DNA of 64,000 nucleotides from Candidatus Thorarchaeota archaeon. GTDB lineage: Archaea; Asgardarchaeota; Thorarchaeia; Thorarchaeales; Thorarchaeaceae. The stretch lies in the NCBI GenBank assembly GCA_046482545.1, contig JAWOEX010000032.1, positions 1 through 64,000 on the forward strand, read 5' to 3'. The notes below the pieces were generated by a model. That model saw only the letters and a program-made list of their open reading frames with translations, was not told the origin of the DNA and searched no databases. Position numbers and translations under genes: made by a program. Below are positions 7,686 to 15,035 of the stretch, piece after piece (position 1 is the first letter of the stretch; each line of letters opens with the position of its first letter).

Positions 7686-10600
7686 ATGTCTGAGGAACTC
7701 GATGTTCAAATTGTTAGATACAAGCCCGAAATGGCTGCGGAACTTGCTGAAATGTATAACTCGTGGGATGAACTGTGGATTAGCGGATACACTCAAGGTG
7801 TTCCCTATGATGCTCAGCGGGTACGAGACCGATATGACAAGATGAGTGCCATTGCCATACTTATAGCCGTGAAATCTGATGACGGCAAACCTGTTGGATC
7901 CTGTACCTTACACGAACACTGGCGAGACAAGGATGCCGCATACGTCGGCGTGTTGGGCGTTAGGCCTGAGGCTCTCGGGAAGAAAGTTGGCAAGAAGCTG
8001 CTTCTTAGATCTATCCAGATTGTCCGCAATGAGGGTTACAAGCGAGTAGACCTAAACACTTGGGCTGGCAATACGCGAGCCGTACCTCTTTACAAGAAAG
8101 TCGGTCTTATGTGGAACCCTGAAGCCTCTGGAGTTCAAATGGAGGATTATATTCCTGCAATTCTAGAACACCCATTTTCAAAGCCGTTCTTCAGAGGAAT
8201 GGAGGAGAACGAATGGTATGATTATCAGAAACGGGAACTAACCCAAAAGCCAGATGAAATGACCTACAAGGGGATGGATGTTTATGCCTACGATTTCGAG
8301 CGCGACCAAGACGATTTAACGGTCATAGTTGATCGCCATGCCAGGGCAATATCTTCCATAGATCGCACAGTAAACGGCCAGTGTATCACAATATCTGCCA
8401 GAGTTGACAGTCATAAGGTTCTTTGTGGAGTTACCGGGCAGTATATTCTTGAAGTGGTTAACGACAGTGATGAATCGCTCTCTTTCAAAGTGAATCTAGC
8501 TTCATTTCCAGCTCTTGAATTCAAGGATGAGGACTCGATTGAATTTCAAGTAGATTCTGGCGATACATATGAATGGGCAGTACCTTTTGCTGTCAGCTCT
8601 TCAGCCCCTATTCATAGAGAGAATATTCGATCTCCCACAATAGATTCCAATATACACATGAACGGGGTTGAGATGCATTTCCAGACTGGAATGGTCATCA
8701 AACCTATTGCAGACATCAAATCCCGGTGGCCTTATTCGCGAGTCCTCCCGGGTGGTTCTTCTACTCTGCCCCTTATCGTATTGAGCTCAATCGAGGACGA
8801 GTGCTCTGGAATTCTGAATCTAGACGCCAATCATTCGTCATTCAAAATAGAACCACGCGAGACTAGGATTGATATTTCACAAGAGAGGATCTCGGGGGTC
8901 AATGCTCTTGTTTCCGCTGATTATGAAACAGAACCTGGAGAATACTCAATAATAGCGAAAATCAAAACGGATGAGAAAACAGGTGAGAATGGAAAGGCCA
9001 TCGAAACGAGAGATTTCAAGATTCCTCTCTTCTGTGGTGAATCAGGAATTGTTTCTACTTTCGAAGACAAAAGGAACAAAGATGTCATTATCAATGGAGT
9101 GAATTACCAAGCTACTATGAGTGTTGAGGGTGCAAGGCTGAGAGTAAGAGACATTCACAATAGGGCCGGCTCGCTCTTTCAGGTAAGATCACAAGTTGGG
9201 CCTCCCTTCGGAATGGATCCTTTTAGATATGCTGAACGAGATTTCTCAACGGAGAAGAGTGATGACGGTATTACTGTATCGATGGTGGGTAGTCACCCTG
9301 AAAGGCCTTTGAAAATTGAAGACCGAGTTTTCTTCCAGCATGAAAACGGTGTAATATCTCACGAAGTTTTGATAACCAACGAAGGTGAAAATAGGCAAAA
9401 GCTGCAATTGCGTGTGTACTGTGGAAGCCAAGGTATTGATTTGTCTCCTGGAACTGTGACTGTTCCACTCAAGGATGGCATTGTCAAACAAGGTCTTATT
9501 CACGATCTTTTTACACACCCTTCTGTACCTAGTTCTCCAGACGCATTCTCTGAGGGTTGGATTGCATCGAATAAGCGCGGGCTAACTAAAGGTCAACTCT
9601 TCGATTTGGAGGCAATTGATGAAATTCACATGGGCAACGATCAAACTGCATACCTCCAATATCCCCTTAGAACCTTGGAGCCAGGAGAAACGGCAAGAAT
9701 TTCCAAAATATGGTTTGTCACCAAAGCAAGTGATTGGCAGGATGTTAGGAGAACATGGAAGGAAAAAATCTTGCGTAAATCTTCCATTGAATTTGGACAA
9801 CAGGAATCGCTGGAAATGCATTCCATTGTAGATATCTCAGTGAATCCCTGTACTATTGATGAGCCATGCGATTGCGAAATCCACGCCCAGATACATAAGC
9901 GAATTGTTGCCCCCCTAACTGTTGAAGCTTCTGTTCAGGCTCCAAATGGATGGTCGGCAGAGGTAATTCCCCCTAGTGAAGATGAACACGCTGAGCAAAT
10001 TGAGATCAAAGACGTGACTTCACTCAGAATAAAACTAACTCCAAGGGAAACATTTCCTGATGGTTTTCATCTCCATGAGGGGACTATAGTAATCCAAGCT
10101 GCTACCACTTACAAGAAGGATTTTCGCATCATTCAACTGGGTGGATCGGATACTCGTGTTTCTGTTGATCAGTTGAAAGACAGCGGACTTTCGTCCTATG
10201 AAGTTTACAATGGTTTGATCAGGTTCAGGGTTTCTCCTGAATATGGCGGATGCGTTTACTCATTGAAAAATCCGAAGGGTACCGAGCTGCTGGTTTCAAC
10301 TTTCCCTGAGGGAGGACCTAAACCAGGTGCGATACTTGCAAATTATTATGGCGGAATACAACCGATAACTTGGGATGACGAACTGAACGAAAATCTATCT
10401 AGTGCTGAGACCAACAAAGAGGACATGTCTGCCAGCATATGCGAAAAGGAGTTGTGGCGTGGAGTTGAGATTTCTTGGACGGGAAACATCCAAGATTCAG
10501 TAAAGGGCGTTTCTTTCCGTGTTCAGTATTACACATTCCCGAACTCTCCTTTACTTGCAGCCAGATGGATTGTCAAGAATACTACCTCCGCCCCTGTTAA

Positions 10601-10982
10601 GATATCACCCACTTTTGTGGTAGATCCCGCATTCGACGGCGACGTATCCAATATCATGACACATATGAACTGGGAAGGGGAGGAACAGAATGTCAAGCTG
10701 GCTAGGTACCCTCTTGCCATAATGCCTTCGTCCAATTGTATTTGGATTGAAGACGAGGATCTTTCAGAAGAGGAACCCCTGGGTTTGGGTCTTACAGCGT
10801 CATTTGAAGACGCTGAACTGTTATACATAGGAGTTGGCGACTTGATTCTTACTGGTACTAGTAGTCTCAACCGTCAGCTTCTTCCCGGAAAGGAACTGGT
10901 TACAACTTCTTGGTTTATGGTGAACCCACAGTCTCTGCAGGAACTTGACCTGCTTAGGAAGGTCGCTGATGACCTGATATGA
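7686..10982 (+). CDS. Large (1098 aa) GNAT N-acetyltransferase with beta-rich C-terminal domains
   Basis: AYVGVLGVRPEALGKKVGKKLL, DLNTWAGNTRAVPLYKKVG; paralogue of 36686-40015. Confidence 0.85.
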   Translation: MSEELDVQIVRYKPEMAAELAEMYNSWDELWISGYTQGVPYDAQRVRDRYDKMSAIAILIAVKSDDGKPVGSCTLHEHWRDKDAAYVGVLGVRPEALGKKVGKKLLLRSIQIVRNEGYKRVDLNTWAGNTRAVPLYKKVGLMWNPEASGVQMEDYIPAILEHPFSKPFFRGMEENEWYDYQKRELTQKPDEMTYKGMDVYAYDFERDQDDLTVIVDRHARAISSIDRTVNGQCITISARVDSHKVLCGVTGQYILEVVNDSDESLSFKVNLASFPALEFKDEDSIEFQVDSGDTYEWAVPFAVSSSAPIHRENIRSPTIDSNIHMNGVEMHFQTGMVIKPIADIKSRWPYSRVLPGGSSTLPLIVLSSIEDECSGILNLDANHSSFKIEPRETRIDISQERISGVNALVSADYETEPGEYSIIAKIKTDEKTGENGKAIETRDFKIPLFCGESGIVSTFEDKRNKDVIINGVNYQATMSVEGARLRVRDIHNRAGSLFQVRSQVGPPFGMDPFRYAERDFSTEKSDDGITVSMVGSHPERPLKIEDRVFFQHENGVISHEVLITNEGENRQKLQLRVYCGSQGIDLSPGTVTVPLKDGIVKQGLIHDLFTHPSVPSSPDAFSEGWIASNKRGLTKGQLFDLEAIDEIHMGNDQTAYLQYPLRTLEPGETARISKIWFVTKASDWQDVRRTWKEKILRKSSIEFGQQESLEMHSIVDISVNPCTIDEPCDCEIHAQIHKRIVAPLTVEASVQAPNGWSAEVIPPSEDEHAEQIEIKDVTSLRIKLTPRETFPDGFHLHEGTIVIQAATTYKKDFRIIQLGGSDTRVSVDQLKDSGLSSYEVYNGLIRFRVSPEYGGCVYSLKNPKGTELLVSTFPEGGPKPGAILANYYGGIQPITWDDELNENLSSAETNKEDMSASICEKELWRGVEISWTGNIQDSVKGVSFRVQYYTFPNSPLLAARWIVKNTTSAPVKISPTFVVDPAFDGDVSNIMTHMNWEGEEQNVKLARYPLAIMPSSNCIWIEDEDLSEEEPLGLGLTASFEDAELLYIGVGDLILTGTSSLNRQLLPGKELVTTSWFMVNPQSLQELDLLRKVADDLI

Positions 10983-11043
10983 ACGAAACCCTTGCCTCAA
11001 TCCCGATAGTAACTAGATTAGGATACGATCTCATAAGGGGCCA

Positions 11044-11094
11044 TCAATGTACAAAAATATACGTCAATGTACAAATATGAGTAAAACTTAAATA
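11044..11094 (+). promoter_or_regulatory. trpB2 promoter: two TGTACA TRP-box-like sites within a 12-bp direct repeat, followed by a TATA box
   Basis: TCAATGTACAAA at 11044-11055 and 11064-11075 (20-bp period); CTTAAATA at 11087-11094; TGTACA is the archaeal TrpY operator consensus. Confidence 0.7.
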
Positions 11095-11137
11095 GGATAC
11101 CGAAAGGAACCGCCTAACCGCAACTGAGGTATTGAAC

Positions 11138-11241
11138 AGTGACGAGTGTGAGCGTGCAAAACCGCCAATGGTATTACGGGCCCCTAGGGCTCTCTCAACC
11201 ACATATCTAGCTAAGGCTTATACCCCTGTACACTCGTCACT
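11138..11241. repeat. Perfect 12-bp inverted repeat in the trpB2 leader
   Basis: AGTGACGAGTGT (11138-11149) / ACACTCGTCACT (11230-11241). Confidence 0.85.
11139..11210 (+). CDS. Putative trpB2 leader peptide, 23 aa (MTSVSVQNRQWYYGPLGLSQPHI)
   Basis: GTG start 8 nt after GAGGT RBS (11126-11130); contiguous Trp-Tyr-Tyr codons; lies between promoter and trpB2. Confidence 0.5.
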   Translation: MTSVSVQNRQWYYGPLGLSQPHI

Positions 11242-11367
11242 CCTGCTATTTCTGCTGAGTTTCTCCTGCAATGGAGACATATTCTCAACAAATCTAGTTG
11301 TCTCTAGACAGTTTTCTACATCCTCAGCATCAGCGGTAACAAATTTGAAAGAAGGAACTAACCAAGA

Positions 11368-12672
11368 ATGAATGCAATTAGTACCAAAATAACACTCGAT
11401 AAGGAAGATGTGCCGAAAGAGTATGTCAACATTCTGCCATATCTACAAAGTCCTTTACCACCTCCACTGGATCCGAAAACTGAGGAACCGGTTGGACCAG
11501 AGGCACTGATGGCTATATTCGCTGAGGAGTGCGTACGTCAAGAAATGTCGGAAAAGAAACGCATTCCAATACCCGAACCAGTTAGAGAGGCTTTGATTCA
11601 TTACAGCCGTCCTACTCCACTTCAGAGGGCTCGGAGACTTGAAAGAGCGTTGGATACGCCTGCAAAGATATACTTCAAACGGGAAGATGTAAGCCCGTCC
11701 GGCAGCCATAAGCTGAATACTGCATTAGCTCAGGCATACTACGCCAAGAAGGAAGGCGTAGAGCGGCTGGCAACTGAAACTGGCGCAGGGCAATGGGGGT
11801 CCGCTGTATCTCTTGCCTGTGAGTATTTTGATTTGGAAGCAATGGTCTACATGGTTAGAGTCAGCTATGACCAGAAGGAACACCGTGGGACACTCATGCG
11901 AGTCTATGGAGGACAAGTTATTCCTAGTCCTTCTGACAAGACCGAATTCGGGAACCAGATACTTGCTGACAATCCCAATCATCCTGGTACCCTCGGTATC
12001 GCAATCAGTGAAGCATTGGAAGATACCCTTGCCGACGAATCCACCAAGTATACATTAGGATCAGTTCTCAACCACGTTCTTTTGCAACAGACTGTCATTG
12101 GCCAAGAGACCATTGCTCAGCTTGAATTACTCGATGAGAAACCTGACGCGCTGGTGGGCTGTGTTGGAGGTGGAAGCAATTTCGCCGGTATGATATACCC
12201 GTTTATCGCTGATGGCCGCTTTGAGAATGCAGATTTGATAGCGGTTGAACCTGTTGCCTGCCCCACTCTCACGAAAGGTGAATACCGTTACGATTTTGGT
12301 GATACCGCCGGGATTACACCGAAACTGAAAATGTATACACTTGGCAAAGATTTCACTCCTCCAGGCATTCACGCTGGCGGATTACGGTATCACGGCTGTG
12401 CACCATCTCTGAGCGCTCTCCGAAATGAAGAAAGAATCAAACCAGTAGCTTATGAACAGATACCTGTTCTGGAATCAGGAGTCTTCTTTGCAAAGCAAGA
12501 AGGTATCATTCCCGCACCGGAGTCAGCTCACGCAGTCAAAGCAGCAATAGATCTTGCAAGAGAGGCGAAGGCCAACGATGAAGAGAAGACTATCGTGTTC
12601 AACCTATCGGGGCATGGACAGTTCGATATGGGGGCCTATCGTGCTCTGATGATAGGTGAACTCGAAGAATAG
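11368..12672 (+). CDS. trpB2: Tryptophan synthase beta chain type 2 (TrpB2), stand-alone
   Basis: [23 protein letters not shown] (PLP Lys), [45 protein letters not shown]. Confidence 0.95.
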
Positions 12673-12804: not shown

Positions 12805-13467
12805 CTAATTTTTTACTATTCTTGGTACGCCTTTCACTGCCATAACCGATTGTACGACTATGATGCACGCCTGCAGGCCAAGACCAACGAAGATTTCTCC
12901 TGTTAGGAGTATGCCCAGAAGCAACCCGAGTATAGGAAGTGACCCCACTCCTAAAGATACAAGAAGAGCAATTAACGTAGCCCTCTGATTGTTCACCGGA
13001 TTAACCGCAACCATTCTACCTTCTCCAACGATTCTAAATAACACCCCGCCCACAACAAGGGCGAGACCGTATCCAAGAGGTATCTGTATTATTGGAATCA
13101 AAAGGGCAAACAAAGAAAATGGATTTCCAATCAATAGAATGACAGTAACGATTGCCATGAAGAAGATGTATGGTCCAGTGAATAGAATCGCTTTCGCTTT
13201 GAGATTCATCATGGAGCTGAGCGGCAGACCTTCGTAGATTGATGCTCCTTGCGTATCGACGCCCAAGAGACCAGTGATGCTTATCCCAGCGAAACTCTGA
13301 ATTATAATCAGCATCATCACCAATGTGGGAAGTTGAACTCCCCCTTCTGCCATCATGGCAAGTGACGGTGCCCAAGCTATCAGCATCATGAGGGGAAGAA
13401 TCAGAACCGCTAGTGAACCTAGATCCCTCGTGGCAAGCCGAAGGTCTTTCTTGATTATTGCACTTGA
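12805..13467 (-). pseudogene. C-terminal half of an ABC-2-type permease-like membrane protein, probably 5'-truncated (first ATG at 13389)
   Basis: Frame is open from 13467 and reads AIIKKDLRLATRDLGSLAVL before the first ATG; several TM helices; same type as 63445-64000. Confidence 0.55.
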
Positions 13468-15035
13468 CTATATCCCTTCTTGAGCAGAGTATCTACTTGT
13501 TCATCTGCTTTATTTGGATAGTCCTTATTGTAGTGCGTTCCTCTGCTTTCTTTCCGAAGTCTAGCACAGGAAACTATCACATCAGCAACATCAGCTATAT
13601 TCCTGAGCTCAAGCAGGTCCTTTGTAATGATAAAGTCCCAGTAGTATTGGCTGATTTCATCTTGCAGAAGTTGCATTCTGTGCTTGGCCCGCTCAAGCCG
13701 TTTATTGGATCTAACAACACCAACGTAGTGGAACATTGTCCTGCGGATTTCGTCCCACATATGCGATACTATGATGCGTTCATCCGGATCAGTTGCCTCA
13801 CCTGGGTCCCAAGCAGGAATGTCAGTATTTAGTTTGAGTCTGTCAATGGTATCTGATGCGGTTTCTGCTGCCCGCTTGGCTAGGACGAGTCCTTCGAGCA
13901 AGGAATTAGATGCCATTCGGTTGGCACCATGAAAACCGGTTGCAGCCGTTTCGCCGATAACAAAAAGCCCGTTGATGTCTGTTCGCCCTTGCATGTCGAC
14001 TCTAACACCTCCGCACATATAGTGGGCCGCCGGTACAACTGGAATCGGTTGTTCCGTGATGTCTATACCCACCTCCTTGCAGTTGCCGTAGATGAGCGGG
14101 AATCTATTCTTGATAAACGAAGCATCACGAAATGAGATGTCTAGCCACGCATGGTCAGCTCCTGTTCGCTTGAGTTCATTGTCGATAGCTCTGGAAACTG
14201 TATCTCTCGGTGCCAGCTCGGCGTCGGGATGATAGTCCTCCATGAACCGTTCACCGTCGGGCCCAAGCAGTTTGGCACCTTCCCCCCTAAGCGTCTCGGA
14301 GATTAGGAAGGAGCGCTTTTCCCGATGGAAGAGCAGAGTAGGATGAAATTGAACAAATTCGCAGTTCATCATGGTAGCTCCAGCTCTGTATGCCATAGCT
14401 ATACCGTCGCCCGTTGCCACATCTGGATTGCTTGTGTAGAGGAATGCTCTACCTGCTCCGCCTGTTGCGAGCACCGTGATTTTGGATGCAAAAGTTTCTA
14501 CCTCACCCATGTTCCCGTCTAGTACATAGGCGCCAAGCACCCTATTATTGCTGGTACAGAGATTTACAGAGGTATGATTTTCGAAAATATGAATGTTGGA
14601 TTCTTCTCTGGCTCTTGCAGCAAGAACCTGTTCGACATCCCGGCCAGTGTGATCTTTCACGTGAAGAACCCGGCGTTCACTATGTCCGCCTTCTAGCCCT
14701 AAATCATAAGCATCACGATTATCTGCTTTACAGAAATCAACACCCATCTCAACAAGTTCTTCAATCCTTGCGGGTGCTTCTTTGACGAACTTTGACACGA
14801 CCTCAGGATGACAGAGCCCCTCTCCAACTCGCATTGTGTCTCTGATGTGCTTTTCGAAGGAATCCTCAGGCGAAACGACAGCAGCGATTCCTCCCTGTGC
14901 ACGAAGGGTAGCAGAATCTGTAAGTGATTCCTTCGTGATTAGGTTTACTGATCCATGTTTAGCCGCTTTCAGGGAAAAAAGAAGCCCTGAGATGCCAGAG
15001 CCAATTACCAAGAAATCTGATGTGGTGACAGACAT
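13455..15035 (-). CDS. nadB: L-aspartate oxidase
   Basis: VIGSGISG, AQGGIA, LEGGHSERR, EFVQFHPT, LISETLRGEG, PVVPAAHYMCGG, HGANRMASNSLLE, ESRGTH. Confidence 0.95.
   Translation of the reverse strand: MSVTTSDFLVIGSGISGLLFSLKAAKHGSVNLITKESLTDSATLRAQGGIAAVVSPEDSFEKHIRDTMRVGEGLCHPEVVSKFVKEAPARIEELVEMGVDFCKADNRDAYDLGLEGGHSERRVLHVKDHTGRDVEQVLAARAREESNIHIFENHTSVNLCTSNNRVLGAYVLDGNMGEVETFASKITVLATGGAGRAFLYTSNPDVATGDGIAMAYRAGATMMNCEFVQFHPTLLFHREKRSFLISETLRGEGAKLLGPDGERFMEDYHPDAELAPRDTVSRAIDNELKRTGADHAWLDISFRDASFIKNRFPLIYGNCKEVGIDITEQPIPVVPAAHYMCGGVRVDMQGRTDINGLFVIGETAATGFHGANRMASNSLLEGLVLAKRAAETASDTIDRLKLNTDIPAWDPGEATDPDERIIVSHMWDEIRRTMFHYVGVVRSNKRLERAKHRMQLLQDEISQYYWDFIITKDLLELRNIADVADVIVSCARLRKESRGTHYNKDYPNKADEQVDTLLKKGYSQVQ

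Follow-up and report, generated by a model that had tools for sequence, protein, structure and literature searches.

How might an archaeon that appears to have retained TrpB2 alone adjust the synthesis of this tryptophan-forming enzyme to the supply of the amino acid? The question is raised by a 64,000-nucleotide (nt) stretch of DNA from Candidatus Thorarchaeota archaeon (assembly GCA_046482545.1, contig JAWOEX010000032.1, forward strand; hereafter the window), in which a trpB2 gene follows a gene for a 1098-amino-acid (aa) protein with a GNAT domain after a spacer of 385 nt (10983-11367). A first-pass annotation of the sequence had described in this spacer a leader with a short Trp-codon reading frame and had proposed a ribosome-mediated attenuator. 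The leader does lie inside the spacer, and it holds a second, -1 frame, overlooked in that annotation, which begins within the heptamer CCAATGG around the Trp codon and runs to the start codon of trpB2. We propose that ribosomes stalled at this UGG codon under scarcity of Trp-tRNA enter the -1 frame and, through termination-reinitiation, bring about the synthesis of TrpB2, a reading that we favour while stopping just short of calling it probable.

The gene content of the organism makes such control plausible. Searches of the genome (98.9% complete assembly) gave no match to TrpA (PF00290) or IGPS (PF00218), and TrpB2 is therefore the sole tryptophan-forming enzyme that could be found in it by homology. 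The organism appears to lack the capacity for de novo tryptophan synthesis and to have kept TrpB2 alone, whose role is presumably indole salvage, so that induction on tryptophan shortage would be physiologically sensible. Of the 434 aa of TrpB2 itself one is Trp, whereas Trp makes up 1.33% of the residues encoded by the long open reading frames (ORFs) of the window.

Two overlapping frames joined at an invariant heptamer

In two genomes of the same genus, whose TrpB2 proteins are 93% and 91% identical to that of the window, conservation across the block 11044-11268 greatly exceeds that of the flanking sequence, and hardly any change is seen in 11108-11268. BLASTN reaches the genus only, with no element match in the rest of the family, and an alignment anchored on trpB2 (345 nt upstream of the gene, in other genera of the family) together with a covariance model was needed to go further. 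The same leader layout is found in those other genera. The model, built from the 80-nt core of the leader, was searched in 86 genomes of the family and in 125 genomes of 26 other Asgard families. The element is present as one copy per genome in 57 of the 86 family genomes, and all strong matches with downstream sequence available sit upstream of trpB2, including those of both paralogues of one genome. The model did not find it in the genus of the family that lacks trpB2, nor in the 125 genomes from other Asgard families. All counts given here are taken over related sequences, and raw numbers therefore suggest more independent cases than exist; leaders that diverge by more than 40% in their variable part number about 28.

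Three loci deserve separate mention. A weak match in one genome (G042, L172) is spurious, as it lacks the UGG and the hairpin described below and lies inside an apparent coding sequence. In another genome (G017, L173/L036) trpB2 is interrupted by in-frame stops, and its leader reaches no more than 27 bits and has a broken -1 frame; here gene and leader seem to decay together. In a third genome (G015, L023 and L162 on contig C6) trpB2 occurs as two paralogues separated by 11 kb, and a leader precedes each of them. In copy 1, CUG overlaps the first UGG, and copy 2 (L162) has lost the first Trp codon and carries UUG over its sole UGG.

The short upstream ORF (uORF-C) is as the first-pass annotation described it: a GAGG word at 11126-11129 lies 8 nt before a GUG codon at 11139, which opens a 23-codon frame containing Trp-Tyr-Tyr. 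Among 56 distinct leaders, the start codon is ATG in 50 and GTG in 5. It lies 18, 21, 24 or 30 nt before CAA-UGG, always in frame with it, and this frame is kept in 55 of the 56 leaders. In one genus the distance between a conserved upstream word, GAGYGTG, and CCAATGG has shrunk from 8 to 6 nt, and the ATG has moved by 2 nt with the frame preserved. The UGG is invariant, with a second Trp codon in some lineages only, and the stop codon follows it after 13 codons here, 8 in most relatives and 8-17 overall. The Tyr codons of the window's uORF are not conserved across the leaders; of the Trp and Tyr codons on which the earlier proposal of aromatic-amino-acid sensing was built, only the former thus proved constant, and sensing of aromatic amino acids in general is not indicated.

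The sequence around the Trp codon, [G/A]CCAATGG, is present in 55 of 56 leaders. The codon before CAA specifies Gly, Tyr, Cys, Arg, Ser or Leu but without exception has the form NNC. Pairing of the two C's of CCAATGG is seen in no more than 15 and 21 of 53 sequences, respectively, for which reason we rejected it as the cause of their invariance. The invariant CC is explained neither by coding nor by pairing.

Overlapping the UGG in the -1 frame, an AUG opens the second frame, ORF-B. Between the heptamer and the trpB2 start, the 56 leaders contain 19 stop codons in this frame, all of them terminal, compared with 187 and 184 in the other two, and most leaders keep ORF-B open over 57-74 codons. 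An antisense gene was rejected, as no antisense frame is open, and so was an independent small protein, since the amino-acid sequence of ORF-B is not conserved beyond the region of overlap and substitutions are spread evenly over codon positions (90, 102 and 115). The overlap region is without length changes, except for three-base steps in a hairpin loop. Elsewhere, non-triplet insertions and deletions in ORF-B are either compensated by a partner within a few nt or lie at its very 3' end. An open frame with paired indels and without amino-acid conservation therefore points to selection on the act of translating ORF-B, and not on its product. Trp codons are scarce in it: TGG accounts for 8 of 2630 codons in the ORF-B frame, against 36 and 51 occurrences in the other frames.

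ORF-B ends where trpB2 begins. In 45 of 52 leaders its stop lies within -11 to +7 nt of an in-frame trpB2 start (at -4, -8, -11 or between -1 and +7), and the commonest arrangement, found in 15 leaders including that of the window, where it reads ATGA, is a stop at -4 nt. Many ORF-B stops lie 4-23 nt past the trpB2 start. Experiments in Haloferax and E. coli have shown that termination-reinitiation coupling depends on overlaps of this kind and all but disappears when the distance reaches about 20 nt (PMC10666635).

Conserved helices around the heptamer

Besides hairpin P2, which lies downstream of the heptamer, there are two enclosing helices, P1 and P1b (Table 1). In 53 distinct sequences, 90.6% of the cells of the GC-rich hairpin P2 are paired and 4 of its 6 pairs show compensatory changes. 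P1b, which across the family joins AUGG-N with N'-CCAU, has 79% of its cells paired and one covarying pair (CG 18, AU 12, GU 4, UA 1). No shuffle reached the observed percentage paired, number of both-side changes or covariation score, and slid controls gave at most 51%. The alignment used for pairing was fitted to the model, which favours pairing; an unfitted alignment of 20 sequences gives the same picture, and RNAalifold on the plain alignment recovered hairpin P2 only.

The outer helix, P1, is too variable in position to be aligned and was tested by comparing the pairing energies of cognate and non-cognate arms, which came to -14.87 and -12.89 kcal/mol, respectively (permutation p ~8e-5). 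Its 5' arm lies over the uORF start codon in 20 of 28 leaders. The perfect 12-base-pair (bp) helix over the start codon noted in the first-pass annotation is present, and it is the genus-specific version of this family-wide P1; the chance expectation for a 12-bp perfect repeat in a 250-nt stretch, estimated from window size, is about 0.002. Conservation of the uORF and of its helices, on which the earlier proposal depended, is thus seen beyond the genus, with the uORF in frame, P2 and P1b covarying and the cognate arms of P1 pairing better. The short downstream pairings of the same proposal (11253/11323, 11262/11273 and 11274/11299) fared differently: they exist in the sequence but are not conserved, and change without compensation in the two same-genus genomes. 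Matches of 5-7 bp are common here, with 14 inverted repeats in 600 nt, and the region 11253-11329 cannot be aligned across the family.

Table 1 Features of the trpB2 leader and its promoter in the window.
Feature	Position	Strand	Remarks
Two direct repeats, each with a TGTACA box	11044-11078	+	TRP-box-like operator adjoining the promoter; boxes (11048-11053, 11068-11073) exact, 20 nt apart
TATA-like box CTTAAATA	11087-11094	+	Genus-conserved; TATA-like word at equal distance from the heptamer across the family
Shine-Dalgarno-like GAGGT	11126-11130	+	8 nt before uORF start; GAGG/GGAG-type words precede uORF start in relatives
Helix P1 (outer)	11138-11149 / 11230-11241	+	12/12 bp; encloses the switch, 5' arm over uORF start codon
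uORF-C, 23 codons, GUG start	11139-11210	+	Single Trp codon at 11169-11171; reads ..Q-W-Y-Y..
Invariant heptamer CCAATGG	11165-11171	+	CAA 11166-11168 and UGG 11169-11171 (uORF-C), overlapped by -1-frame AUG 11168-11170
ORF-B, -1 frame, 67 codons	11168-11371	+	From AUG inside CCAATGG to TGA overlapping trpB2 ATG (ATGA 11368-11371)
Helix P1b, UGGU/ACCA	11169-11172 / 11198-11201	+	In the minimum-free-energy fold; predicted to sequester both AUG and UGG
GC-rich hairpin P2 (GGGCCC, loop CTA, GGGCTC)	11178-11192	+	Begins 6 nt after UGG here, 5 nt in most relatives
trpB2 (TrpB-like pyridoxal-phosphate enzyme)	11368-12672	+	434 aa; NF009057 662 bits, TIGR01415 624 bits, PALP domain

As a whole, the 281-nt leader folds little better than shuffled sequences (z = -1.5), and the signal lies in specific conserved helices rather than in overall stability. 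P1 and P1b cover the starts of the uORF and of ORF-B, and therefore the folded leader is predicted to hide both start codons.

The geometry of the region resembles a frameshift signal in part. The spacer between UGG and hairpin is constant (about 5-6 nt), and the loop of the hairpin varies in length by 3-6 nt. For a ribosome whose P site holds CAA and whose A site holds UGG, the hairpin would begin 11-12 nt beyond the first P-site base, a distance that places it at the mRNA entrance. Of the elements that define a programmed -1 signal, the leader has a stable structure inside the usual range of 5-9 nt downstream of the shift site (a 6-bp GC hairpin at 5-6 nt), a zero frame that closes early and a -1 frame that stays open; in place of a slippery heptamer of the form X_XXY_YYZ it has C_CAA_UGG. 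The GAGYGTG word is conserved 9-11 nt upstream of the ORF-B AUG and could pair at about -5 kcal/mol with a generic archaeal anti-Shine-Dalgarno sequence.

A proposed route from the Trp codon to trpB2

The promoter, flanked by the TGTACA (TRP-box-like) sites, would start transcription near 11117-11122, some 20 nt ahead of the uORF, and a ribosome would load onto uORF-C while transcription is still going on. With charged tRNA-Trp in plentiful supply, the UGG would be read and the ribosome would terminate 13 codons further on (8 in most relatives); the leader would then fold as P1, P1b and P2, with both starts buried and about 160 nt before trpB2 left untranslated. With tRNA-Trp scarce, the ribosome would stall as UGG reaches its A site, CAA occupying the P site and the GC-rich hairpin lying at the mRNA entrance, and from this position it would enter the -1 frame at the overlapping AUG. 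It could do so by slipping back one base, so that C-CAA-UGG is read as CCA-AUG-G, or by aborting the peptide of 8-10 residues and restarting in place on the AUG. Translation of the Trp-poor ORF-B would then end at the stop located at the trpB2 start codon, where termination-reinitiation would yield TrpB2. We infer the direction of the regulation from this arrangement, in which the ribosome itself probably senses tryptophan shortage.

The two routes account for different features. Abort-and-restart would explain why the overlapping codon is a start codon, while a -1 slip would explain the invariant C and a layout like that of dnaX, the mostly unpaired wobble C before CAA being consistent with re-pairing of the P-site tRNA. 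In its most specific form the proposal states that a natural programmed -1 frameshift at a hungry Trp codon serves as the amino-acid sensor, stimulated by the hairpin and by GAGYGTG, and that a throw-away frame delivers ribosomes to trpB2; we regard this form as tentative and, taken as a whole, rather unlikely.

Several observations weigh against entry of stalled ribosomes into ORF-B. C_CAA_UGG is a non-canonical shift site, on which tRNA-Gln would re-pair at two of three positions, with a mismatch in the middle, and a slow A site is known to matter more for +1 than for -1 shifts (PMC5009743). Both leaders of the genome with two paralogues are without the AUG and partly without the CAA context, yet their ORF-B is open. 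For the Shine-Dalgarno sequence and start codon of trpB2 the predicted pairing (0.51 and 0.48) does not exceed that of the remaining leader (0.62), so that sequestration of the trpB2 ribosome-binding site is unsupported; coupling would therefore be less needed, which leaves room for an inhibitory ORF-B or for protection from polarity. Finally, all the evidence is comparative.

The main rival is refolding that depends on the stall, in which a ribosome at UGG would keep the 5' arms of P1, P1b and P2 free while their 3' arms are being transcribed and caught in other pairings. The ORF-B AUG would stay exposed once that ribosome has gone, and new ribosomes would initiate there, perhaps with GAGYGTG as a weak Shine-Dalgarno sequence, translate ORF-B and couple to trpB2, which amounts to the logic of an attenuator with a translational output. 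This account makes good sense of the fact that, with the exception of one copy, every leader has a start codon overlapping the Trp codon in the -1 frame (AUG in 55, UUG in L162), of the predicted sequestration of the AUG by P1b and of the uORF start and GAGYGTG by P1, and of the conservation of GAGYGTG whatever the reading frame, with its predicted affinity for the anti-Shine-Dalgarno sequence. It leaves unexplained both the invariant CC before AAUGG and the fixed spacer to the hairpin, and we found no conserved alternative partner for the 3' arms, as the sequence after the element is unalignable and the helices of 11253-11329 are not conserved. We consider it unlikely, if still a serious contender. 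The opposite sign of control, in which ribosomes translating ORF-B under ample tryptophan overrun and block the trpB2 ribosome-binding site, and a starvation stall on UGG silences ORF-B so that trpB2 initiates by itself, would follow from the overlap of UGG and AUG, since a stall must occlude the AUG. Most trpB2 genes of the family have their own GGAG and a start region predicted to be unsequestered, and the many ORF-B stops located beyond the trpB2 start would suit such interference. The commonest layout is a 4-nt stop-start overlap, however, which is typical of positive coupling (PMC10666635), the avoidance of Trp codons would have no explanation if ORF-B were read only under plentiful tryptophan, and in the window the Shine-Dalgarno sequence of trpB2 is poor (AAGGA, 13 nt upstream of the start). 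Inhibition by ORF-B therefore strikes us as quite improbable.

We give little credence to two further explanations. The conserved, covarying helices and invariant unpaired nucleotides could belong to a riboswitch-like RNA that gates the ORF-B AUG when bound by a metabolite or a Trp-activated protein, the short uORF being incidental. No Rfam family, riboswitch and T-box classes included, matched the leader (cmscan, E up to 10, with two chance SNORD94 matches only). Unless the uORF is translated, it is difficult to see why its start should stay in frame through shifts of three bases and through a 2-nt indel, and an overlap region whose length changes only by three-base loop steps fits double coding; a riboswitch-like element is accordingly a very poor candidate. 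No better is transcription attenuation of the bacterial type, the main idea of the first-pass annotation, with the downstream alternative helices acting as terminator or antiterminator. A Trp-codon leader peptide and overlapping helices are indeed present. The window leader contains no terminator-like site, though, T runs of at least 5 occur in only 9 of 54 leaders and at no conserved position, and the proposed competing helices are not conserved. Transcriptional polarity exists in archaea, and in a variant of this explanation an archaeal termination factor would end the untranslated leader while translation of ORF-B, by shielding the nascent RNA, merely protects the transcript; this variant could act together with entry of stalled ribosomes into the -1 frame. 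Of the earlier alternatives, attenuation or translational control, it is the second that the data favour: the conserved output is a second long frame reaching the trpB2 start, which argues for translational control and against attenuation by a terminator hairpin, of which there is none.

Promoter, neighbouring genes and related systems

Upstream of the leader, the TGTACA boxes of the window recur throughout the family: at least one exact box is found in 50 of 53 leaders, and at least two with at most one mismatch in 52 of 53. Their positions are phased, at about 110, 100 and 90 nt before the core motif and just upstream of the TATA-like word. TGTACA is what we take to be the consensus of TrpY, of which trpB2 is presumably a target. 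TrpY binds TRP boxes (PMC6737238), and the repeated TGTACA words beside a TATA box recall the TrpY/TRP-box repression of the stand-alone trpB2 of Methanothermobacter thermautotrophicus. In Methanosarcina, Thermoplasmata, Methanobrevibacter and others, the TGTACA word precedes the trpB2 start codon by 23-68 nt; Thorarchaeota seem to keep the same type of promoter, from its sequence, but with a leader of about 250 nt inserted between promoter and gene. In the same genome, outside the window (L123:3900-5336, contig C11 ~13400-14835), a gene for a 423-aa class-I/II aminotransferase-like protein is preceded at 60-160 nt by three more TGTACA boxes, of which two are spaced by 10 nt. A regulator binding TGTACA at trpB2 may have its second target here, possibly the gene of an aromatic aminotransferase.

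The intergenic DNA is single-copy in the genome, and a repeat or mobile element was therefore rejected; ARAGORN found no tRNA within the window. The 1098-aa protein encoded upstream (7686-10982, + strand) matches GNAT acetyltransferases over its first 140 residues, the remaining ~950 being without a family match, and just downstream of trpB2 a 194-aa ORF without a Pfam match lies on the opposite strand (12805-13389, - strand).

Ribosome-mediated sensing of amino acids by leader peptides is a textbook bacterial mechanism, and to our knowledge, and in our literature searches, no archaeal case has been described. The Thorarchaeota leader shares with enterobacterial trpL (Rfam Trp_leader RF00513) a Trp-codon leader ORF before a tryptophan gene, helices that overlap the ORF and, presumably, a ribosome that senses charged tRNA. 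It differs in being archaeal, in having one Trp codon instead of tandem ones, no U-run terminator hairpin and no Rfam match, and in its output, a long coupled ORF. Among recoding signals, the +1 cassette of prfB (RF2) senses the speed of decoding in the A site, and in the -1 signal of dnaX a shift site lies between a Shine-Dalgarno-like word upstream and a stem-loop a few nt further on. A similar three-part layout is seen here in GAGYGTG, CCAATGG and the hairpin after 5-6 nt; unlike prfB and dnaX, the shift site is non-canonical, the sensed codon would be a sense codon for an amino acid and the product would be a throw-away peptide.

In the ermC leader (ermCL), ribosomes on the leader uORF shift frame in the presence of ketolides, read past the uORF stop and switch on the downstream gene (PMC5009743). 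The likeness to the Thorarchaeota leader is a change of frame on a leader uORF that activates the main gene; in ermCL, however, a drug is the trigger and the shifted ribosomes unfold a hairpin over the ermC start, whereas here the trigger would be a hungry Trp codon and the new frame, of about 65 codons, ends on the start codon itself. Gene pairs coupled by termination-reinitiation (PMC6728339, PMC10666635) likewise have a 4-nt ATGA overlap or lie at a very short distance, but their upstream partner is a protein-coding gene and not an unconserved leader frame.

Leaders with Trp codons also precede trpB2 at loci of the Odinarchaeia type (L025, L027, L056 and L064), where a leader ORF 157-230 nt upstream carries four Trp codons (..W-A-W-R-W-L-x-W-P-stop); that of a further locus (L029) has three. 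These leaders resemble the Thorarchaeota element in placing a Trp-codon uORF before trpB2 and differ from it in having several Trp codons and no match to our model, the Thorarchaeota form being set apart by its one invariant Trp codon and its two-frame design.

Control by tryptophan in archaea has been known at the level of transcription factors only (PMC6737238), and no productive use of hungry-codon frameshifting was known as of a 2016 review of recoding (PMC5009743). Comparison of 57 genomes shows that the translation of two overlapping frames is under selection in a leader kept by Thorarchaeota, which are close relatives of the eukaryotic lineage. The design is unlike that of bacterial attenuators, being free of a terminator and built on a long coupling frame, and the element is compact (~250 nt). 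If the stalled ribosome does slip at the hungry codon, this would be the first natural case of starvation-induced frameshifting used for regulation.

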